44,433 nt of DNA, from the IMG/VR virus record IMGVR_UViG_3300027976_000072, positions 1 to 44,433 of that record; one strand, written 5' to 3'. Position 1 is the first letter of the stretch, and each line of letters begins with the position of its first letter. The translations under genes and the position numbers were made by a program. The DNA is from a virus. Its lineage: Duplodnaviria; Caudoviricetes. Below, one piece after another: positions 879 through 35,396 of this stretch. Below the pieces are notes generated by a model, which was given only the letters and a program-made list of their open reading frames with translations, did not search any database and was not told the origin of the DNA.

Positions 879-1039
879 CTTTTTTCATGATTTAAGTCGG
901 GCATACTTGCCCTTCCAAATTTTCTAAGGGGCTGTTTTTCAGGGTGGTCCCTGCCTATGAACTTTCAACATGTTAAAAATTTTCAAAAAATTTTCAAATT
1001 TTTTTTTAGGTCCACTGTAACCCGATCAATATTTTTCCG

Positions 1040-1047
1040 TATACTTG
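1040..1047 (+). promoter_or_regulatory. Putative Bacteroidota-type -7 promoter element
   Basis: TATACTTG, one mismatch to the TAnnTTTG consensus, a few nt upstream of the first stem of the structured region; no clear -33 TTTG. Confidence 0.45.
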
Positions 1048-1050
1048 CAA

Positions 1051-1351
1051 TGGTGTTGAGCCTGGAATCAGAAACCAGATCACTCAACCGGTCCTTTTGC
1101 CTAGGTTTAGTTCAACTTAACGGGTGTCAGGAAGGGCTTAGGAGCAGTGAAGGTATTATAACCTGGAAACTTCTAAGACATCAAAAAGTTCTTTTTATAA
1201 GTATCTGGACTCACTTTAATGGCAATGGTAACGCTATATATATGTTAAAGAAGAGTGTGGTAGCCTTGGTTACAAGGAAGCACTGACAGAATATGAAGTA
1301 AAAGAATAGATTATAAAAACCTGTCTCGGGGAAAAAAAAACCGGGGACAGG
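1051..1351 (+). ncRNA. Candidate large structured non-coding RNA or 5' leader of the late operon
   Basis: Nested helices found by eye: 1051-56/1178-83 enclosing three hairpins (1057-1086, 1092-1136, 1137-1177); 1189-95/1300-06 enclosing 1209-1256 and 1257-1283; final hairpin 1320-1351; G-U pairs favour the + strand. Confidence 0.55.
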
Positions 1352-1386
1352 GAAGGGAACCTGTATCTAATTGTTACCTTTATAGT

Positions 1387-1434
1387 ATGAAACTTTACAT
1401 TACAACAGGGGAAACCAAATTACATAACACATGA
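1387..1434 (+). CDS. Possible 15-aa leader peptide (MKLYITTGETKLHNT) coupled to ORF 1431
   Basis: ATG 4 nt after TACCTTTA (-7-like box, 1375-1382); stop overlaps the next start (ATGA). Confidence 0.3.
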   Translation: MKLYITTGETKLHNT

Positions 1435-4673: not shown

Positions 4674-6872
4674 TTGAATTTTTGGACAGGTATATCTAAT
4701 AGTTCTTATAAACTTTCTGAGATACCTTCTTTTAACCCAGTTACAGATCGATATGAGTATCTGGATTTTTGGAAGAGTGAGAAAAGAAAATGTATAGAAG
4801 GGACCTGGCAATCTGGTAAATGGATGCCAGGCCCTTTATACTTTTATATTAACTACTTCCATATCAAAGCCCAAGATATAAAGTCTGTCGGTGAAAAACT
4901 TATCCTTCCTTGGCTAAGAGACATTGACTGGGAGTTGTTTTTGCTTTATGAAGAGTGTAGAGGATTCTCTGGATTTTCTGGGGATAAGGTATATACCTGC
5001 AATAGATTCCTAGGCCCAGAAAAAGCTGTGCTTAAAGAGCTGGGAATCTTTGAGTTATATATTGAAAAAGGCTTAATAAGAAAGGAAGACCTTCTCAAAA
5101 CCTATACCCCAGCTAGAGATTATCTCAGAACAGTGCAGCTAACTGCAATGGGAAAGCCTTTATACGACAACAAGGCAAAGAACTTTATCTCTATGCAGTC
5201 CCGAGGTTCGGGAAAAAGTTTCTCCAGCGCTGCTATTATTGCACATAACTTTATTTTCGGAGGTTCGACAGACTATGATTATTATCTCCAAATAAAAGCA
5301 GAAGGAGGAGATGCAAAGTCTGACACTATAGTTGGAGCTATCGATACAAAATATTCTAAGCCTTTAATAGACAAAGTTCTTTTAGGTTATAGCAAACTAC
5401 CTGGGGAAGTCCAATATTTAGATACAACTTTTAGGGCCCCTTTCTATGTTGGCTTTAAAGGTTCTCCCAGAGAAAACAGAGACTTCACAAATAAACATGG
5501 TTCTGTAGTTTACCACAGAACTTTCAGAAACAACCCTCTTGCTGGTAATGCTGGTCGACCAAACTTGATGGTCATCGATGAGATTGGTTTCTTTGATATT
5601 TTAGCAGAAGCACTTGCGGGTGTGGAAGGTTCTCAAGTATCTCAGATACATAACAGACTTGTTATATGGATGTTAGGTACAGGAGGATATGTAAATGGAG
5701 GTTCTATAAACTATGTAGAACATATTTTTAGAGACCCTGAAAAATATAACTGTTTAGCTTTTGATGACGAGTGGGAGAAGCGAGGTAAGATAGGATACTT
5801 TGTACCTATTACTAAAGCTAACAATACTTTCAAAAAAGGAGAGAATCTAGTTACAGATTTAGAAACAGCTCTTAAATACGAGAACATCCAAAGACAAAAA
5901 AAGAAAGGGGATAGAAAGAAATACTCCGGACATATTATTAACTCTCCCTTAGTTCCTTCTGAAGTTTTCCTATTAACAGAAGGTACAAGATTCCCAACAA
6001 TACTTCTCAAAGACCACTTGCAAGAACTACTTGGGGGCTCTAGAAAATATTTAGTCGATCATTCTTATAGAGGTTGGATGAAATTTAATGACCAATCTGA
6101 GCCCTATCTAGATGTCTCCGAAAATGCTTTTCCAATAAGAAACTACCCAATAGGCAAAACCAACAAAGGTGTAGAAGAAGACCCAACAGGTTGTGTAGAG
6201 ATTTTCTTAAAACCTGTAAAAGGAGAACATGGAGACGTAGCAAGAAATAGGTATATCGCAGGAGCTGACGTTGTAGACAAAGACAGAGCTACTACTGATT
6301 CCCTTCCTTCTATATTTATCTACGACCGTTTAACAAATAAGATTTGTGCTGAGTATACTGGAAGAACAGATGATGCAAAGTTTTTCTATGAACAAGCCAG
6401 AATGTTGTGTTTATACTACAAAGCTAGCTTGATGTACGAGCAAAACCTTGTAGGTTTATTTACTTATTTCTCCCAACATAACAGTACTTATCTGTTAGCA
6501 GATACTCCTAGACAACTAAGAAACTCAGACACTTACAGAGAAAATACCAATACCGCTAAAGGTATCAACGCTAGTACAAAAGTTAATTCAACAGCAGTTG
6601 ACTTTATTGCTTCATGGCTTATCAGCCCAGTTGCAAAAGATAAAGAAGTAATGAACCTTACTACTATACAATCTCCAGCTCTTATTCAAGAGCTTATCAA
6701 GTGGAATACAAGTAATAACACAGATAGGGTTTCTGCTTTAGGAATGCTATTCTGGCACGAAGAGACTTTAAATAAAGTAGAGAGAGCGAACACAGAAAAA
6801 ACAATGGCTTTTGTAGAAAGCGAGTTTTTTGCTAAACGAGGATTAATATCACACCATGAGCAAGTATACTGA
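4674..6872 (+). CDS. terL: Terminase large subunit (crAss-like), TTG start
   Basis: Walker A QSRGSGKS, Walker B MVIDEIG, coupling motif GTGG, nuclease YIAGADVVD, YEQN and DRVSAL; directly upstream of the portal. Confidence 0.95.
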   Translation: MNFWTGISNSSYKLSEIPSFNPVTDRYEYLDFWKSEKRKCIEGTWQSGKWMPGPLYFYINYFHIKAQDIKSVGEKLILPWLRDIDWELFLLYEECRGFSGFSGDKVYTCNRFLGPEKAVLKELGIFELYIEKGLIRKEDLLKTYTPARDYLRTVQLTAMGKPLYDNKAKNFISMQSRGSGKSFSSAAIIAHNFIFGGSTDYDYYLQIKAEGGDAKSDTIVGAIDTKYSKPLIDKVLLGYSKLPGEVQYLDTTFRAPFYVGFKGSPRENRDFTNKHGSVVYHRTFRNNPLAGNAGRPNLMVIDEIGFFDILAEALAGVEGSQVSQIHNRLVIWMLGTGGYVNGGSINYVEHIFRDPEKYNCLAFDDEWEKRGKIGYFVPITKANNTFKKGENLVTDLETALKYENIQRQKKKGDRKKYSGHIINSPLVPSEVFLLTEGTRFPTILLKDHLQELLGGSRKYLVDHSYRGWMKFNDQSEPYLDVSENAFPIRNYPIGKTNKGVEEDPTGCVEIFLKPVKGEHGDVARNRYIAGADVVDKDRATTDSLPSIFIYDRLTNKICAEYTGRTDDAKFFYEQARMLCLYYKASLMYEQNLVGLFTYFSQHNSTYLLADTPRQLRNSDTYRENTNTAKGINASTKVNSTAVDFIASWLISPVAKDKEVMNLTTIQSPALIQELIKWNTSNNTDRVSALGMLFWHEETLNKVERANTEKTMAFVESEFFAKRGLISHHEQVY

Positions 6873-15869: not shown

Positions 15870-18155
15870 ATGATAGGAGTTCTCTCAAATATTCAAAATG
15901 CCTCTAATGACTTTGTTTTTAGAATACTTATAGAGCCTACTCCTAGTTCAGAAAGTATTGTTGTTCCTCCTGAGATAACTGACCCTGGGGAAATTGCAAC
16001 ATACATTGCTGAAGAACAAGCAAAGTATCCTTTATTTGTAGTTCCTTTTCAACTTGGTGGGACTTATGATCTTATTATTGATTGGGGAGATACTACAAGT
16101 AGCCCCAGTATAACAGCCTTTGATACTCCTGTAGATTCCCATAAGCATAATTATGCTTCCCCAGGAGTTTATACAATTACAATTTCTGGTACAGATCTTA
16201 GAAATTTCAGATTTAGTAATAGCGATTCTGCTAAAAAAGTAAGGGAGATTTTAAATTGGGGGTTCCTTGATATAGAAAACAACGGCTTAGGTTTCTTACA
16301 CGGATGTACTGGAATGACAATACAAGCTCAAGATTTTTTCAATCCTGGGCCTTTGACTTCATGTCAAAACATGTTTCATTCAAATTATGTCAATCCTAGT
16401 ATTCCTGGGATAGCTACTTGGGATGTTTCCGGAGTAGCAAGTTTCCAATACATGTTTGCTGGCAATTATCTTTTCAACGATAATATCTCTTCTTGGAACA
16501 TGGCTTCTGCAGTAAACTTAGAAGGTATGCTGAAGAGCTGTTATGTATTTAACCAACCTGTGGGAAATTGGGTTCTTCCAGCTACTTGCACAATCGTAGT
16601 AAGGTTATTTGAAGGTTGTTTAGATTTTGACCAACCTTTAAATTCTTGGGGGCCCTATTCTCTTAATTTCATTAACTTAAATTGGCTGTTTTATAATTGC
16701 CAAGATTTTAACCAAAGTCTTTCTACTTGGTTAAATGCTCCTAATCCTTGTAATAGTTTACATTATACTTTTAGAGCTTGTCATAGTTTTGACCAAAATA
16801 TAAATTCATGGAATATTTCAAATGTTACTGACCTAAGTTCCACATTTGAAGAAGCCTTTGTATTTGATAAGCCACTATCTAATTGGGATACTTCTTCTGT
16901 ACAAAATATGAGTTATACTTTTTCTTATGCAAAAAAGTTTAATCAGCCTTTAAATACTTGGGATACTTCTGCTGTCACTAACATGTTTGGAATGTTCAGG
17001 TTTGCACATAAGTTTAATCAAGTGTTAGACGGGGATGCTTTATGGGATACTTCTCTAGTTATTAGCATGGGAGTAATGTTCTATAATGCTCTCGAATTTA
17101 ACCAAGATGTATCAGATTGGAAGACAAGTTCTGTAACAGATATGAGCGGAATGTTTGCTGCGTCAAGTTTCAATTTTGGACCTTTAGCAACAGTAGGTCC
17201 AAAATGGGATGTAAGCTCTGTAACAGATATGAGTAACATGTTTAGACAATGTCCTTTTAATAAAGCGCTAACAGATTGGGTGACAAGTTCTTTAATAAAC
17301 ACAAATTATATGTTTTTAACAAATGCTTCTTTTAACCAAGAAGTATTTCATTTTAATATGTCTTCAGTTACCTCTGTAGCAGGAATGTTTTATGGAGCAA
17401 CTTCTTTTAATAAGACTGTAAATAGCTGGGACGTTTCTTTAGTTCAAGTCTTTGATGATCTTTTTAGAGGAGCAATAAACTTTAATAGAGAAGTAACAGA
17501 TTGGGCAACTGGTAGTGCTACTTCGATGGCACGTATGTTCTTCGGAGCTACACAGTTTAACAACGAAGGAGATATTCCATTGGTAAAAGATAGTGCTAAA
17601 TGGGATGTTAGTCTTGTAGAAAATATGAGCGGAATGTTTTATAACACTAAGATTAAACTGGGGTTATATAATTGGAATACTTCTTCTTGTACTAACATGA
17701 GTTCTATGTTGTATAACTGCACTCTTTTCAATGAAGATATCTCAGGCTGGGATGTAAGTTTTGTAACAGATTTTAATTACATGTTCCAAGGAGCTTCCAT
17801 TTTTAATCAAGCTATAGGTTCTCCAGGAACTTGGGACACTTCGGCAGCTTTGAGTATGGAAGGTATGTTCTTATACGCTTATGGGTTTGACCAGACACTA
17901 GAAAACTTCGATGTCTCTTTAGTAGGTTCCGGTATATCAGGACAAGGTTTTACTAATTTTCTTAATAGTGTGACACTTTCTACTGCTAACTATGATGCGA
18001 CTTTAAACTCTTTTGCTGGGCAAACTCTAATTTCAAATCAAAATTTTCATGGGGGATTGTCTAAGTATACTGCTGCAGGACAAGCTTCAAGGGATACTTT
18101 AACAAATCCAGGAGGATTAAACTGGACCATAATAGACCAAGGATTATTCCCATAA
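15870..18155 (+). CDS. DUF285/BspA-type repeat protein with N-terminal PKD-like domain
   Basis: IDWGD...HNYASPGVYTITISG (PKD-like), about 20 W(D/N)xSxVxxMxxMF...FN repeats, C-cap LSTANYDATL...WTIIDQG; no signal peptide. Confidence 0.9.
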   Translation: MIGVLSNIQNASNDFVFRILIEPTPSSESIVVPPEITDPGEIATYIAEEQAKYPLFVVPFQLGGTYDLIIDWGDTTSSPSITAFDTPVDSHKHNYASPGVYTITISGTDLRNFRFSNSDSAKKVREILNWGFLDIENNGLGFLHGCTGMTIQAQDFFNPGPLTSCQNMFHSNYVNPSIPGIATWDVSGVASFQYMFAGNYLFNDNISSWNMASAVNLEGMLKSCYVFNQPVGNWVLPATCTIVVRLFEGCLDFDQPLNSWGPYSLNFINLNWLFYNCQDFNQSLSTWLNAPNPCNSLHYTFRACHSFDQNINSWNISNVTDLSSTFEEAFVFDKPLSNWDTSSVQNMSYTFSYAKKFNQPLNTWDTSAVTNMFGMFRFAHKFNQVLDGDALWDTSLVISMGVMFYNALEFNQDVSDWKTSSVTDMSGMFAASSFNFGPLATVGPKWDVSSVTDMSNMFRQCPFNKALTDWVTSSLINTNYMFLTNASFNQEVFHFNMSSVTSVAGMFYGATSFNKTVNSWDVSLVQVFDDLFRGAINFNREVTDWATGSATSMARMFFGATQFNNEGDIPLVKDSAKWDVSLVENMSGMFYNTKIKLGLYNWNTSSCTNMSSMLYNCTLFNEDISGWDVSFVTDFNYMFQGASIFNQAIGSPGTWDTSAALSMEGMFLYAYGFDQTLENFDVSLVGSGISGQGFTNFLNSVTLSTANYDATLNSFAGQTLISNQNFHGGLSKYTAAGQASRDTLTNPGGLNWTIIDQGLFP

Positions 18156-29800: not shown

Positions 29801-31312
29801 AGTTATCTTATCAACACTGTAATTCCAGTAGAATCAGATATCAATATTGATATCTCTCATGGAAAAACTATGTCTCATGGAGCTTCAAGAGAAGCTACTA
29901 GTTACAAAGTTCAAGAAACAGGTAATGATGTTGTAAGTAATTATTTTGACTATGAAGATGCTTATTCTATTTTCTCTTTAGGCAGACCTCAGTTTAGCCA
30001 ACCAATAAGATTCCTACCTGAAGAAGATGCCCCAACAAGAATCTATATATCTGACACTAAAATATATGGAGAACAAACAGATAGTTGGTCTAAATTTAGA
30101 ATAAACTCTTACAAAGACCTTGAAACATCTTTTGGTTCTCTGACTAAACTTGTTAGTCTTAAGGATAATATTTTATTCCTTCAAGAAGAAGGCATGGGCT
30201 TATTATCTATTAATCCTAGAGCTGTTATTACAGCTTCAGATGGAATAGCTACTACGCTAGGAACTTCTGAAGGACTAGAAAGATATCAGTATGTCTCTAC
30301 AAAAAGTGGAACAAAGCATCACTTATCTGTTGTAGTTTCAGATAACACACTATATTACTATGACGTAGTAAATAATCGTTGGATGTCTTTTACAGGGGGA
30401 GATAAAGGAGGTTTATCTTCTTTAGGTGAAGAAGCTGGATTTCAAAGTTTGTTCTTACAATACTTTGAAGATAATACTAACTTTCAGAATTTTGATAGAC
30501 CTTATGTCGAAGGAGGTATAGTATCTCACTATGACTCTACTAATAAAGAAGTTTCTCTAACTTTTCATGGCTTACTATGCCCAGAACTTATAGATGTCAA
30601 TGTTCCTCAAAATATCACCAATACTCATTTCTATGTAGAAGCTGGTGGAACTATGTATCAGGCTATTGGAGATTATTCAATAGATGCTAATTCTTATGGA
30701 GAAAAGCCATATGCAAACTTAGAAGACTATCAGAGTCTACTTATAACTGATCCAACAATACAGCAAGCTAACTCTATGACTTTAGCTTGGTCGGAGAAGA
30801 AAATGTCTTTTAATGATATCTATGACTACAAGCCTTTTATCTATGTAGGAGACAATAAGAACATGTTCTCTCCCGATCCTAGTAACCCAGAAAACTGTTA
30901 TATTCATAACAAAGGTAATTATGGGGAGTTCTATAATGTAACCTATCCGTTCCAGATCTCGTTAATACTAAATGGAAACGATGATAAGCCGTTAAACAAA
31001 ACCCTTGCATATACTGAATATAATGCAATAGTAAAAAAAGGCATTTCTCAGTTACAAGATAAGACTTTTGATACTGTAAGAGTTTATAACGATTATCAAG
31101 ATTCTTCTGAAATATCTTTAAATGCATTGCCAGATAATTCAGAGCACGAAAGAAGGTTTAGAAAATGGAGGTTTAATATGCCTTCTGATATTACTTCTGG
31201 TGATTACATGAGAGGGCCTTGGTCTATTCTTACACTCACTTGTGATAATACACAGAACTACTCTTTAGCATTGCAGACTTTAATTAATTACTACGAAACA
31301 CATGAGTACTAA
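26813..31312 (+). CDS. Muzzle / tail stabilisation protein
   Basis: 1499 aa; GYKRGEIYRFGI, YIGDIKMP, FGGDTYI, DSWSKF, RRFRKW, MRGPW motifs. Confidence 0.85.
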   Translation: MKAQAHSYASVNKDFSVELFPNNLIYQLRNGRMTTDAEIGTEGGVINIRGNKYNFTIPAGKYILNYTTIVETVYLITTDSLTEEGGTGYIYKVVISPKTLVSVITLIYSSPDLLLSVYRTVQSHGIRENSTKERLYFSEHKSETRSLNLITIPVDAPIEFTQLHPDASFSAPIVEHIFEGGDLRRGVYEYAFYLTTYDGKKSLLSENSVPISLIGSAFNDAKDYSDSKIVDESPNSTNFGNTFSASKSVKISVDVSQYPSNLYDTVTFVAIYSGDKFLPPEITAIDTVSLVNNKATFIHSGLESEVFLSYNDYVDNRYPFFTNKTFAAKDQVLLAGNTRSATLTLDYNASTNRYLKTGETYEDFHFNPYNDESGTHFTTQPDGTIEDWQNNDQYKYQNPTENNGNYYLGGTGDNIDYTFVLHELDSGLVANKISHSDTQIINEIVSLEQDYPSGYLNNFNSPYLRFLKGYKRGEIYRFGISFTSKKGNKSFVKYIGDIKMPELSERAGYVTIPGTTIDYFPLARTTAFVYNEQIPLNGGLALQDIAPGYTYQQTFFGVVYGVYNLDFNYFPYDVEGIDDGPSPPAQLHVEISINGFPIVSTEIFTSVGTSQGTETILNGILLQPGDEVVITISNDVDSNSTVSLSGSSVFNLTGTGKKSHFYSLGLEFNVKNIPDGYDSYQICAVQREDRFKTRLAQGYGTKSFALQNEDYSIPTRYAAVGNPISPVSFYATTDSPPGLASFTRDTQNDFSRRDLIPLCFPEVSYGTMDLSTFGNCYLRPIGLYSEIVVRDGFNPASTTDYFVRNRGNNSDNADDTLPRKIRGKFHSTVPFNSIEFSKAKAFEKIKASVKNPGTSYAVFTVGGYEFINYLWNHDQVDGSLVNGSGPYDINYVSRSGTKQFVQLERGNHELLFGGKNYAGGSSLSMVIFDYTRLLPEHYGGNGIDAISKNVFKAVTRPIFKTGYTKVFGGDTYISFYDSLYGMWDIGEGNDTSSGKKSYLINTVIPVESDINIDISHGKTMSHGASREATSYKVQETGNDVVSNYFDYEDAYSIFSLGRPQFSQPIRFLPEEDAPTRIYISDTKIYGEQTDSWSKFRINSYKDLETSFGSLTKLVSLKDNILFLQEEGMGLLSINPRAVITASDGIATTLGTSEGLERYQYVSTKSGTKHHLSVVVSDNTLYYYDVVNNRWMSFTGGDKGGLSSLGEEAGFQSLFLQYFEDNTNFQNFDRPYVEGGIVSHYDSTNKEVSLTFHGLLCPELIDVNVPQNITNTHFYVEAGGTMYQAIGDYSIDANSYGEKPYANLEDYQSLLITDPTIQQANSMTLAWSEKKMSFNDIYDYKPFIYVGDNKNMFSPDPSNPENCYIHNKGNYGEFYNVTYPFQISLILNGNDDKPLNKTLAYTEYNAIVKKGISQLQDKTFDTVRVYNDYQDSSEISLNALPDNSEHERRFRKWRFNMPSDITSGDYMRGPWSILTLTCDNTQNYSLALQTLINYYETHEY

Positions 31313-34300
31313 AAAGAAAAAACCCATATCTTATACGTATAGAAAACTAGGGAATTCTCCTCAGTCTCAAGCTCATAGTGTTGGAGGAGTTATGAAAGAC
31401 CTTGGGAATATATTTATAGAATCTGTCATGTCACCTATTGAAGGATTTACAGGGAAAAACATATACAAACCGAAATATGAAAATCACGTATTAGGGCAGG
31501 TAGCCAAAGGCGCTTCAGCTGTAGGAGCAATAGGTACAGATCTCGCAGGAAGTTACTTTATTCCTGGCTATGGATTAGCAAAAGCAGCTGTGCAATCTCA
31601 GACAGCTGACCCAGAATCTTTTTATGATACTAAACAAGTTAGAGGGGCAGACGGAATTTATCACCAAGAATATAATATTAAACCTGAAGATAAATGGGCA
31701 GAAGGAGCCAAAAAAGTTGGTTCAATAGCAGGAGATGTCATGTCTATGACAGGAACTACTGCTGCAGGAGCAGCAACAAAAGCAGCAGCAGCAGCAGCAG
31801 CAGAAAAAGCAGCAACAACAGCAGCAGCAACAGCAAAAGCAACAACAGCAGGAGCAAAAATAGCAGGAGCAGCAACAAAAGTAGGGAAAGCAGCAGCAAC
31901 AGCAGAAGGATTAGCAAACCTAAAAACAAACATAGCAGGATTAGGAAACCAAAAAGTTAATACTGAAGGAAACTCAAGTCCTCTTACAAATTCTATGGTT
32001 CAACCAACAAATTCTATGGTTCAGCCAGGAAGTTTTGGAACGGGGGCAATTGAATTCGGTGACGCTTATGGTGTCCCTCAAAGCGGATTTGCATATGGAG
32101 GACAATTAAAATACGGACTATTACATCCTTCAAGCACTCTATTAAATCCTTCAAACCCTTTAGCATATGGAGGACAGATAAACTACGGACCACTAGGGCC
32201 ATTAAACCCTTTAGCATATGGTGGTAGAATACCTTTAGCATATGGTGGTGAGAAAAAGGAAAAGAAACAAAAGCAAAAGAAAACTTCTGCAGACCCTACG
32301 GCATTTAAAGTAAATCATCCAGGTATTGATGTTGTTGGTCAAAGACCAGAGTCAAATATAGACTGGACTTTCATACAAGCCAGGGAAGGTTTTGAATTAC
32401 AAGGGTATGTCCCAGATAAAGAAAATTCTAATTCTGGTGTGACAATTGCTTCTGGTTATGATCTTGGGTCAAAAGGAGAAAAAGAGCTTGTTGGGCTACC
32501 TCCTGAACTAATTAAAAAACTTATTCCCTATTTAGGGCTTAAAAAAGAGGAGGCTGATAAAGTAGCTAGAAATCTTACAATTTCAAAACCAGAAGCTTTG
32601 CTTTTAAATGAGCATGCTAAAAGTCAAGAGGGCTATCGTCTAATGAATAATTATCAAGAAGCAACTGGGAGATCTTTCCAGGACCTTCCTATGAATAAAG
32701 CAACAGCAGTAGCTTCTATAGCTTTTCAACATGGAGACCTTACTACAGCAGCCCCTAAGTTCTGGGGCCAAGTCATAAGAGATGATTGGCAAGGAGCGTA
32801 TGATAATATTCTAGATTGGGATGGAACTGGGAAAGATTCTAAACACCAACCAAGAAGAAGGAAAGAAGCAACCTACCTAAACCCTAACGAAGAGTATGGT
32901 AAAAACCCATCTAAAGCAAGGGACTTTTATGAAAACAGCAAAAGAAAGTTAGGCCTAGCTTATGGGGGAGAAATAGATCCTCTAACAAACCAAAACTTTG
33001 GATATGGTGGAAGAGTACCTTACAGTCCAGGGGGAGATTTACAGGAAGTCAATGCAGGAGGCTCACATGAAGAAAACCCAATGGGGGGTGTTCCTGTAGG
33101 ACCTAATGCTAGTGTAGAACAAGGAGAGACTATAAAAGGAAATTTTGTTTTTTCTGATAGAATAAAAGTTACTGCAAAAATTACAGAAGAATTTGCTTTG
33201 CCTAAAAACTACGTAGGCAAGACTTATGCTGATGCTTCAAAGATTTCAGAAAAATATAACAAGCATAACGACCATATTGATGCAACTACTTCTGAACTAA
33301 TTACTGCTAGGCTAACAGAAGCTCAAGAAGCTTATAAAGAAATACATATGCCACAACCTCAAGGGCAACCTGGGGGAATGCCTCAAACAGCTCAGTTTGC
33401 ATATGGAGGCCGTATACCTATGTCTGAAGGAGGTTCAATGTTTCCTCTTCCAAAAAAGTACAGAGCCGTTTCAAATCCTTCTGTATCAAAAAGATTGTTT
33501 ATTGCTCTTCAAGCTCTCCCAGACTATGAGGGCTATAAAGATGATTGGACAATTACAGGCCTTACAAGAGATGCTGCTGTAAATGCAGAAGTTGGAGGAA
33601 AAGAAAATACAAAACATTTTGAGGGGCATGGAATGGATGTAAGTTCAAAAGAAGACTCCATAGGATTTATAGCTTGGTTAAAAACTGCCCCAGGTAAAAA
33701 ATGGAAAGAAGACTTTCATGTCACTCAACTAGATGAGAGGAAAAAGAAAGACGCACCTCATTGGCATTTCCAAGTAAACAAAGATGCAGACCGTTCCAAA
33801 ATTTTAAAATACTCTCAATATGAACAACAGTACGAGGAAAATAAAAATTCAGATGGGATGATAAATTATAAGACTTTTGAAAGTGGGAAAAGTAAAACTG
33901 CTTCCTCTTCTCTTAAACAAGAAAAAGACCTTATTGAATACATAATGGAAACAGGGGTATCTGAAGAAACTGCTAGAAATGTTATAAAAAATAGTGATAG
34001 AGATTTGTTAGAACTTTTTAACAAATACCCAGATGCAGCCGATGTAGAAATTGAAAGAGGTACTGTAATTGATTATTATGCAGAACAAGAAAGAAATGCT
34101 AGTGACGTAGAAACTCAAACAAATACTCGTGAACAATCTACAACTACAGCACCTACAAATACAGGTAGTTCAGAAGCTTCTGCAACTCCATCCCCAGTAG
34201 AGTCCGGTTCCGGCCTAATAGGGTATAGAAACACTTTATATTCACAAGCATTTGAACACTTGGAAAATATCTATGGTACTGACGTAGCCAAACAAATGAT

Positions 34301-35396
34301 GAAGGAATATGGACAAGAACTCTCTGGTGAGTTGGGAAAGGCAATCAATTCTGGAGGCCCTAATAACCCTGCAAATTATGAAGATTTTGGTGATTTAGTA
34401 ATTAGTCTAAGTCCTTATCCTAGTGATCCAAAGGAACAGGCCCCAAGTATACCTTCATTAAAAGTAGCAAGTGATCCAAATGAACAGCCCCTAGGAAAAG
34501 GAGTAGAGGCTCCAATACCTCTTCCCCCCAAAAAAGAGGCTCCCGGAGAGCCCTCTGGATACGACTATATTCAAGGAGACATGAACGTAGATAATAAGGT
34601 TGATCATCTTGATACTCGTAATTCAGATGGTACAGGAAGATGGGAACCTCATGTTCCTGGAAAGAGCAGAGGGGAAATTGCTCAAAGAGCAAAGGATGAA
34701 AGTGCTCGTAGGCAAATGGAACAGGATGCACTTGATGCACTTGGAGAACAAGGAAACCCTAGTTGGAAGTCTTACTTAGAGTATGCTCCAGTAGCTTATA
34801 ACATTGCAAGAGGTTTAAGTAAACCTGCTAGTTTAGATAAAAATGATTATACTTACAGTTCAAATGTAAAACCTTTTTCAACAAGTATAGAACCAGAATT
34901 GAGAGATTACCGTAATTCATATGCTAGTGCATTAGACACAGCAGCAGGAGCAACCTCTGATGCTGGTAGTTTATTAAGCAGTTTAGGTACTTACCAAGGA
35001 GTTTATAACTCTTCTGTTGGCCAAGCTTACACTGCTAAAAGAAATGAAGACGCAAGAAATATGTTAGCTTCTCAAGCTTCTCAAGATCAAGCTGCACAAT
35101 TTAACTCTAAAATGAAATATACCGTAGATGATTGGAATCAGAACTCTATTGATGCTACTAGAAATCATCTTGGGGCTGCTGCTACACAACTTGGTCAAAT
35201 AGGAGCTAATGAAAACACTAGAGCTTTATATGATGAATACGGAAGACTTGTAAGCCCAGATGTTACTTGGCCTCGAGCAACAGGAGCTAATGAAAACACT
35301 AGAGCTTTATATGATGAATACGGAAGACTTGTAAGCCCAGGTAAGCGTCGGCATCGAGCTTTTGGTGGGTACTTCTATGAGTCTAAAAATACATAA
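31302..35396 (+). CDS. Modular cargo/ejection protein with pesticin-type lysozyme and M15 zinc peptidase domains
   Basis: IDWTFIQAREG...GYVP...SGVTIASGYDLG...RRRKEA (pesticin C-terminal muramidase); R...N..VGG...KH..G..MD...HWH (M15); follows the muzzle gene. Confidence 0.8.
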   Translation: MSTKKKKPISYTYRKLGNSPQSQAHSVGGVMKDLGNIFIESVMSPIEGFTGKNIYKPKYENHVLGQVAKGASAVGAIGTDLAGSYFIPGYGLAKAAVQSQTADPESFYDTKQVRGADGIYHQEYNIKPEDKWAEGAKKVGSIAGDVMSMTGTTAAGAATKAAAAAAAEKAATTAAATAKATTAGAKIAGAATKVGKAAATAEGLANLKTNIAGLGNQKVNTEGNSSPLTNSMVQPTNSMVQPGSFGTGAIEFGDAYGVPQSGFAYGGQLKYGLLHPSSTLLNPSNPLAYGGQINYGPLGPLNPLAYGGRIPLAYGGEKKEKKQKQKKTSADPTAFKVNHPGIDVVGQRPESNIDWTFIQAREGFELQGYVPDKENSNSGVTIASGYDLGSKGEKELVGLPPELIKKLIPYLGLKKEEADKVARNLTISKPEALLLNEHAKSQEGYRLMNNYQEATGRSFQDLPMNKATAVASIAFQHGDLTTAAPKFWGQVIRDDWQGAYDNILDWDGTGKDSKHQPRRRKEATYLNPNEEYGKNPSKARDFYENSKRKLGLAYGGEIDPLTNQNFGYGGRVPYSPGGDLQEVNAGGSHEENPMGGVPVGPNASVEQGETIKGNFVFSDRIKVTAKITEEFALPKNYVGKTYADASKISEKYNKHNDHIDATTSELITARLTEAQEAYKEIHMPQPQGQPGGMPQTAQFAYGGRIPMSEGGSMFPLPKKYRAVSNPSVSKRLFIALQALPDYEGYKDDWTITGLTRDAAVNAEVGGKENTKHFEGHGMDVSSKEDSIGFIAWLKTAPGKKWKEDFHVTQLDERKKKDAPHWHFQVNKDADRSKILKYSQYEQQYEENKNSDGMINYKTFESGKSKTASSSLKQEKDLIEYIMETGVSEETARNVIKNSDRDLLELFNKYPDAADVEIERGTVIDYYAEQERNASDVETQTNTREQSTTTAPTNTGSSEASATPSPVESGSGLIGYRNTLYSQAFEHLENIYGTDVAKQMMKEYGQELSGELGKAINSGGPNNPANYEDFGDLVISLSPYPSDPKEQAPSIPSLKVASDPNEQPLGKGVEAPIPLPPKKEAPGEPSGYDYIQGDMNVDNKVDHLDTRNSDGTGRWEPHVPGKSRGEIAQRAKDESARRQMEQDALDALGEQGNPSWKSYLEYAPVAYNIARGLSKPASLDKNDYTYSSNVKPFSTSIEPELRDYRNSYASALDTAAGATSDAGSLLSSLGTYQGVYNSSVGQAYTAKRNEDARNMLASQASQDQAAQFNSKMKYTVDDWNQNSIDATRNHLGAAATQLGQIGANENTRALYDEYGRLVSPDVTWPRATGANENTRALYDEYGRLVSPGKRRHRAFGGYFYESKNT
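31764..31955 (+). repeat. Low-complexity GCA/ACA/AAA codon tract including (GCA)7
   Basis: (GCA)7 at 31782-31802; no T on the + strand from 31764 to 31860. Confidence 0.9.
31986..32027 (+). repeat. 21-bp tandem duplication (TNSMVQP x2)
   Basis: ACAAATTCTATGGTTCA(A/G)CCA twice. Confidence 0.9.
35201..35340 (+). repeat. Perfect 59-bp direct repeat with an 81-nt period
   Basis: 35201-35259 is identical to 35282-35340; encodes GANENTRALYDEYGRLVSP twice. Confidence 0.95.

Follow-up and report, generated by a model that had tools for sequence, protein, structure and literature searches.

The window analysed here, a stretch of 44,433 nucleotides, covers part of a crAss-like phage genome, in which the genes for the large terminase subunit (TerL), the portal, the Crass capsid, the ring and the muzzle proteins all lie on the plus strand, as identified by PHROG and Pfam matches. 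The nearest annotated terminase to its TerL is g094 of phage phi14:2, with 33% identity. By analogy with crAss001 and phi14:2 (bioRxiv 10.1101/2020.03.07.982082), leftward genes are presumably early and rightward genes middle or late. As the leftward genes begin at 878, the segment 1040-1351 considered in this work sits in the strand-switch interval, flanked by a conserved element on the left and by the first late-direction genes on the right, at a distance of 3.3 kb from TerL (Table 1). The first leftward ORF starts just left of this element and has no Pfam or PHROG match.

Table 1. Features around the strand switch of the crAss-like phage window
Feature	Position	Strand	Basis or remark
First leftward (early-direction) ORF, 84 aa	624..878	-	Called as a gene in a public collection
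Strand-switch element, ~100 nt	885..990	.	57 nhmmer matches, E < 1e-5
-7 box TATACTTG (1040-47), then CA and ATG	1039..1052	+	Candidate host RNA polymerase promoter
Orphan ORF, 78 codons	1050..1286	+	Covers domains 1 and 2; overlooked in the original prediction
Predicted domain 1, four-way junction	1051..1183	+	Stability ordinary: z -0.08, 80/200 shuffles
Predicted domain 2, three-way junction	1188..1307	+	Modestly well defined: z -2.11, 8/200 shuffles
GC-rich hairpin with T5 tail	1312..1351	-	Predicted leftward intrinsic terminator
Second box TACCTTTA, ATG at predicted +1 (1387)	1375..1434	+	From the sequence; likely start of the late-direction operon
Terminase large subunit (TerL)	4674..6872	+	PHROG and Pfam matches; synteny anchor, structural genes downstream

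The DNA around this interval has features of its own. On the minus strand, consecutive 120-nt windows across 373-910 fold well below their shuffles (z -3.2 to -5.3) and include a 15-bp hairpin at 587-619, making a structured early transcript possible, and the codon use of the leftward ORF 624-878 is atypical (GC3 0.48). Set against L103, the window shows 10 substitutions over its first 5 kb; 8 of them cluster in a small minus-strand ORF (125-277), which suggests local recombination or diversification; the substitution positions named are 162-212, 449, 474 and 554. Farther to the right, 31302-35396 encodes a cargo-type protein combining a Pesticin/lysozyme-like domain (PF16754) with a crAss_CARG1 domain. 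The polymerase motif D[FY]DxD is absent from the last three large ORFs before the point where the window, being a fragment, ends, so that the virion polymerase gene probably lies beyond it. Among the related terminases, P0109, P0112, P0114 and P0115 are about 1090 aa long and contain a PF14528 domain, accompanied in two cases by PF14890; we take these domains to be probably inteins with a homing endonuclease.

The original prediction, drawn by hand, proposed that 1040-1351 may form an undescribed RNA of about 300 nt with several junctions at the head of the late operon. The drawing itself is correct: every named helix is present where it was placed, and the fold coincides with the RNAfold minimum free energy (MFE) structure of 1040-1351, which comprises the closing helix P1 (1051-56/1178-83), the arm 1137-44/1170-77 with its inner AGGT/ACCT, the helix 1189-95/1300-06, a hairpin at 1264-68/1273-77 and a last hairpin at 1320-51 with an A9 loop. 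The imperfect middle arm of domain 1 does occur in the MFE structure but is poorly defined, pair probabilities in its outer part being 0.3-0.6; the suboptimal folds of domain 1 are near-identical.

Comparison with shuffled sequences leaves little that is exceptional in this architecture. The expectation of a fold more stable than that of shuffles did not hold for 1051-1307 (z -0.64, 49/200), and the significance of the whole region (z -1.70, with 6/100 shuffles folding as well) is due to the last hairpin. In a grid scan of the surrounding 12.7 kb with 211 windows of 120 nt on both strands (422 strand-specific windows), a z of -2.1 or lower is reached by 68, and the plus-strand windows starting at 1033, 1093, 1153 and 1213 give +0.6, +0.4, +1.5 and -0.6. 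The ensemble diversity of domain 1 is ordinary (94/200 shuffles), its 5' closing helix arises in 45 of 200 shuffles, and a junction with at least four arms appears in 53/200 shuffles of domain 1 and in 62/80 of 1051-1307; helices that abut each other in tight junctions are rarer (8/200 and 12/80, respectively). As many confident pairs as in domain 2, the ends of which were picked by hand, are found in 4/200 shuffles. The 84 pairs of 1051-1307 are matched by 9/400 shuffles, or by 28/300 when the two halves are shuffled apart, and an equal or larger pair excess is seen in 7 of 44 coding windows of the genome, each set against its own 10 shuffles. The preference for the plus strand, previously argued from G-U pairs, turned out to be compositional: shuffles, too, fold about 12 kcal/mol better on this strand (-70.2 vs -58.4), and the fold holds 11 G-U pairs against 12.1 in shuffles. 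The GC content of the interval, 39%, is at the top of the 25-39% seen at the equivalent place in 47 relatives.

The original prediction recognised no tRNA, tmRNA, riboswitch or ribozyme in the region, and the searches agree: ARAGORN found 0 tRNA or tmRNA genes, and the window has 0 Rfam 15 matches at the gathering cut-off. The best Rfam match in E-value mode is RgsA, with 20.4 bits against a cut-off of 88.4, and falls mostly in the upstream A/T tract. The standard set for conserved structured non-coding RNAs comprises at least three distinct homologues, significant covariation and stability beyond that of shuffles (PMC10690425); in the case of 1040-1351, only near-identical copies from the same phage are available in place of three distinct homologues. 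A special structured RNA is unsupported by these results, which do not refute it.

The GC-rich hairpin with its A9 loop, also part of the original drawing, is the only significant part of the fold, with z -4.73 on the plus strand (0/200 shuffles) and z -3.24 on the minus strand. An intrinsic (Rho-independent) terminator consists of a GC-rich stem followed directly by a U tract. No U tract follows the hairpin on the plus strand, while on the minus strand the GC-rich stem runs into T5, and the layout of hairpin and T-run is the same as at three leftward sites within the block of leftward genes, at -5199, -2878 and -2053. It differs from a classical terminator by a loop of 10-11 nt and by mismatches on the minus strand (-10 kcal/mol vs -17 on the plus strand), and the terminator scan tool did not list it. 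Hairpins resembling terminators occur on the minus strand in 14 of 48 equivalent intervals, which is an upper bound because some of them come from repeat arrays, and on the plus strand in 3 of 48. From its sequence, the 1312-1351 hairpin looks like a leftward terminator; alternatively, it could protect the 3' end of a plus-strand transcript.

A promoter-like box resembling TAnnTTTG had also been noticed just ahead of the first helix. It is indeed found at 1040-47, with a C in place of the near-invariant T at -8. In PMC6847099, T-12, A-11, T-8, T-7, T-6 and G-5 of the Bacteroidota sigma-ABfr -7 element TAnnTTTG are described as invariant, T-8 nearly so. The 1040 box and a second one at 1375 each agree with this element at 5 of 6 specified positions, differing from it by the C at -8 (1040), by an A at -5 (1375) and by the lack of a clear -33 TTTG. 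The 1039-1052 sequence agrees at 13 of 14 positions with a motif that 14 related loci carry without any change, and is the sole site within 2 mismatches in 52 kb on both strands. In Flavobacterium johnsoniae (F. johnsoniae), transcription starts 4-5 nt behind the box (PMC6847099), a spacing that would place the 5' end at 1052-53, past the ATG at 1050 and inside P1. Together with the C at -8, this position favours either an RNA or a weak promoter. A promoter matrix trained on the relatives ranks the 1040 site 1944 and the 1375 site 2720 of 104,230; both score poorly because of GC-richer upstream DNA, and neither promoter is established by it.

The ATG at 1387, behind the second box, opens a 15-codon mini-ORF (1387-1434) whose stop overlaps an ATG at 1431. 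The context of the 1375 box recurs only in copies of this phage, in one related locus (L089) and before g110 of phi14:2, which is listed among the mapped middle promoters of that phage (bioRxiv 10.1101/2020.03.07.982082). This second box implies that the late-direction operon probably starts after the candidate RNA. The ORF that begins at 1431 (1431-1685, 84 aa) contains a DUF285 fragment, and a full DUF285 repeat protein is encoded at 15870-18155. As for leftward transcription, a conserved sigma-70 promoter was considered and discarded, TTGACA-N17-TATGA being found in 10 of 57 intervals and absent from the window; the single 10/12 sigma-70-like leftward site at 1184-1155 is one of 20 where 17 are expected.

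The open reading frame 1050-1286 runs across both predicted domains. Its frame is open from 891, with a further ATG at 957. From the ATG at 1050, 78 codons are reached by 5 of 2000 shuffles, and the 131-codon open run by 6/2000 (9/2000 with block shuffles); with no fixed start and over six frames, a 78-codon run within 1050-1351 appears in 144/2000. In all 11 of 11 distinct related start contexts, the ATG is in frame with a downstream gene of about 100 aa. On the other side, the codon log-odds of the frame are -0.31, against -0.37 +/- 0.11 for the null and 0.23 +/- 0.13 for gene chunks, a score lower than that of all 37 presumed short genes, among which the minimum values are -0.30 and -0.22. 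The GC content hardly differs between the codon positions (0.43/0.38/0.42), Asp is absent, and the codon use is not that typical of the genome.

The encoded protein found no homologue among 1.84 billion representatives, where 8 matches were returned and the two best, which were inspected, are repeat proteins; nor was there a homologue in 5.8 billion proteins or in phage records. A public protein collection contains the neighbouring proteins and neither start of this frame (1050 or 957). Language-model recognition of the protein in the Atlas (1291) is within the range of shuffled proteins. A single-sequence structure model yields a four-strand meander with pLDDT 70-77 over residues 31-78; AlphaFold confidence was discarded as evidence for a gene because a shadow-frame control is equally confident (75.9). 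The fold search with this model gave a best Z of 5.8 and no Foldseek match at E <= 0.001, and the likeness to Whirly/PUR/PC4 folds (Z 4.3-5.5) is not significant.

Terminase searches collected at least 120 proteins and, with identities of 48-58%, about 100 viral loci, in which the 2273 gene, the 3505 gene and TerL follow one another in a conserved order. Within this framework, 1040-1351 has no homologue by blastn against phages and plasmids or by blastn and nhmmer over 102 related loci. Covariance models built on the single sequence gave a best foreign match with E 0.34 in 69 sources, inside the structural gene block, and no homologue in 26 whole records, the latter search having no independent positive control; the domain 2 model, run unfiltered on 8 sources, returned nothing below E 0.8. 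An exact 20-mer of the stretch was found in viral contigs only in the phage itself, and a first scan of genome contigs found nothing. A 22-nt match in a Chryseolinea genome was set aside as chance, since it lies inside a protein-coding frame with neither flanking similarity nor a repeat array. Two sequences came from the metagenome scan, a strain variant (L103) and a relative (L104) whose contig stops before the region. Closer relatives, at about 79% TerL identity, do exist, and in L104, a close relative, the small ORFs of the interval are already different and not shared. The near-identical copies (L001 and L103) are one base off the window in the A-run; the sole L103 substitution in domains 1-2, at 1148, falls in an internal loop and is non-synonymous in ORF 1050-1286. 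On these sequence comparisons, absence at 50% terminase identity means that 1040-1351 is not family-wide, and says nothing of lost function. Literature searches, as far as the texts were available, returned no description of either the RNA or the 885-990 element, and three of the six text supplements of PMC10690425 held no match; the 10,006 viral candidate RNA alignments of that study lie mostly outside this search and may bear on the novelty of the element.

In the relatives, the same interval is occupied by A-tracts, short repeats in both orientations and small genes. Short repeats in at least three copies are found in 22 of 57 equivalent intervals and in 0 copies in the window, so an iteron array can be discarded there. 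The arrays lie 200-700 nt right of the strand-switch element (e.g., in L054, L092, L051, L074 and L046) and, together with an AGGT-N2-3-ACCT palindrome, precede a gene of 90-100 aa or of 171 aa, an arrangement absent from the window that appears iteron- or operator-like. Of three interval genes tested in the relatives, one gives weak helix-turn-helix matches. A RepL or origin role for this small gene would be only an analogy to prototypic crAssphage (PMC10983915). A relic of these genes was sought at 1040-1351 and rejected, as there is no similarity to six families from the interval.

What is conserved at the strand switch is the element at 885-990. Each of its matches is the only one in its locus; they come from the window, L103 and another 55 loci (e.g., L054:2382-2498 and L012:4717-4823). 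Where a locus extends 4 kb or more upstream of TerL, the element is present in 44 of 49 cases, being missing from L005, L006, L011, L019 and L042. A leftward ORF starts 46-96 nt from the invariant G of the element in 45 of 47 distinct rows. The element consists of a GGG-N8-CCC hairpin or palindrome, then of rigidly spaced TTTAG, GGGT and GGTGG blocks and of A/T tracts. A stem of 3-7 bp between a G-run and a C-run is found in 47/47 rows, with a variable inner pair and loops of 3-11 nt of no fixed sequence, and the blocks behind it are spaced almost gap-free. A second helix was rejected, as mutual information and covariation reveal none, and the element has no Rfam match in seven loci. A degenerate pattern for the element type shared by the window and L012 retrieved these two and 21 chance matches. 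The profile weakly matches the strand switch of phi14:2, upstream of g111 (E = 0.0025; L107:8958-9044, about 97,957-98,043 of the phi14:2 record), and gives nothing significant in two end regions of crAss001.

The rigid spacing of the blocks points to a DNA site read by a protein, and we infer that 885-990 is a candidate early promoter or a candidate genome-end or packaging signal. Short terminal repeats have been reported for crAss001 and a pac site for crAss002 (PMC8042965). The contigs of L035, L061, L053, L045, L064, L071, L086 and others stop at most about 600 nt to the left of the element, those of L035 and L061 no more than 30 nt from it; these ends may represent the genome terminus or only assembly breaks. 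With the hairpin promoters of the N4 virion RNA polymerase, as described in PMC4496689, the element shares a short GC hairpin near the first early gene. It differs from them by having no conserved triloop, a single copy per locus and additional rigidly spaced blocks. The phi14:2 study reports early transcripts without common upstream motifs (bioRxiv 10.1101/2020.03.07.982082).

Taken together, the interpretation that we favour, with slightly less than an even chance of being right, is that 1040-1351 is an orphan small gene with incidental folding and not a new structured RNA. The host RNA polymerase would start at the 1040 box and transcribe a gene of recent origin or rapid evolution, the 78-codon frame 1050-1286, whose mRNA would take on the multi-branched fold incidentally. 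As a leftward terminator, the 1320-51 hairpin would keep antisense read-through out of the early region, and transcription of the late-direction genes would begin afresh at the 1375 box. In favour of a gene are the start context (13/14), the long frame, an interval that is a hotspot of small ORFs and the fold of ordinary energy (z -0.64); against it are the codon use resembling that of non-coding DNA, the lack of homologues, the spacing of the box and the C at -8. In our judgement, the frame explains the interval at least as well as an RNA does, and the gene leads narrowly.

Appreciably less probable, yet the nearest competitor, is a structured non-coding RNA, restricted to this lineage and about 260-300 nt long, started by the host polymerase at 1052 with its 5' end in P1; at the early/late switch, it would likely serve a protein as scaffold or sponge. 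The standard spacing of the box supports this possibility, as it gives a start at 1052-53 (PMC6847099) and P1 forms with a probability of 0.85 in a transcript from 1052, but a start at 1053 alters the fold of domain 1 and the closing helix is common in shuffles (45/200). A promoter-like motif at the expected place, the GC content at the top of the range over 48 intervals (25-39%), a well-defined domain 2 (4/200) with tight junctions (8/200, 4/200), an ORF that looks non-coding and the strain substitution at 1148, which spares the helices and alters an amino acid of the ORF, are all in its favour. On the other hand, the folding energy is ordinary, no homologue appears in 102 loci, 69 sources or 26 records, the interval is taken up in the relatives by short DNA repeats and small genes, the plus strand has no terminator, and the 78-codon frame behind a homologous start context would have to be a coincidence. 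A fuller version of this RNA, which we consider unlikely and a shade more so than its core, would be an undescribed, lineage-restricted multi-junction RNA of about 260-300 nt, made by the host polymerase at the head of the late arm, in the slot that repeat arrays and genes for DNA-binding proteins occupy in the relatives. It would have a task at the early/late switch or at the genome end, beside an order-wide element that is perhaps the unmapped entry signal of the injected polymerase.

Likeness to known phage RNAs is partial. The c4-type antisense RNAs of P1 and P7 expose loops complementary to a repeated leader motif. The candidate is likewise placed just after a phage strand switch, but none of its loops is significantly complementary to gene leaders and it has no Rfam match: an antisense-to-leader mechanism was rejected, the best 7-mer of the hairpin at 1266-72 matching 4/20 leftward leaders with 61/200 shuffles doing equally well, and no complementarity was found between the loops and 35 late leaders. 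The prohead RNA of phi29 is a multi-helix junction RNA encoded near packaging genes. This idea of a multi-helix junction near packaging genes is shared by 1040-1351, which differs in its setting (a crAss-type TerL/portal motor, with the stretch 3.3 kb from TerL), in not being conserved among TerL relatives and in having no Rfam match. The closest precedent is provided by two long non-coding RNAs of phi14:2 at the g004-g005 and g005-g006 junctions, detected by RNA-seq as abundant and early-direction (bioRxiv 10.1101/2020.03.07.982082). They belong to a phage of the same order, are of unknown function and lie not far from a strand switch, whereas 1040-1351 faces the late direction and is a prediction from sequence. 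Searched with the covariance models R1 and R2, the phi14:2 record gave no match.

A spacer close to the genome end that is inert or in decay, with frame and fold accidental and only the hairpin and the 1375 promoter functional, is doubtful and comes behind the RNA. The promoter at 1040 would have been weakened by the change at -8, ahead of captured or decayed sequence. This possibility is consistent with the C at a nearly invariant position of the element (PMC6847099), with the rank of 1944 of 104,230 given by the matrix trained on the relatives, and with an interval that is not conserved and has neither protein-like statistics nor RNA-like stability. Its weakness is that the matrix does not discriminate, scoring 1375 poorly too (rank 2720), and that a 13/14 motif and a long frame are both unlikely by chance. 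Finally, the alternative offered by the original prediction, a structured leader or attenuator of 335 nt for the late operon, agrees with a stretch that immediately precedes the first rightward genes and shares their strand but has become very improbable, given that a separate promoter-like box, with an ATG at its +1, follows the hairpin at 1375 and that the plus strand has no U tract behind the hairpin.

The weight of these readings for phage biology differs. If 1040-1351 is an orphan gene, it adds one more small gene and a terminator to a variable phage region and carries little general weight. If the RNA were true, a large structured RNA would be added to those of crAss-like phages, in which the long non-coding RNAs of phi14:2 have no assigned function. 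The 885-990 element is a robust conserved feature and a stronger lead than the 1040-1351 stretch. Conserved from uncultured phages to the cultured phi14:2, it is directly testable and constitutes the more useful outcome of this analysis.
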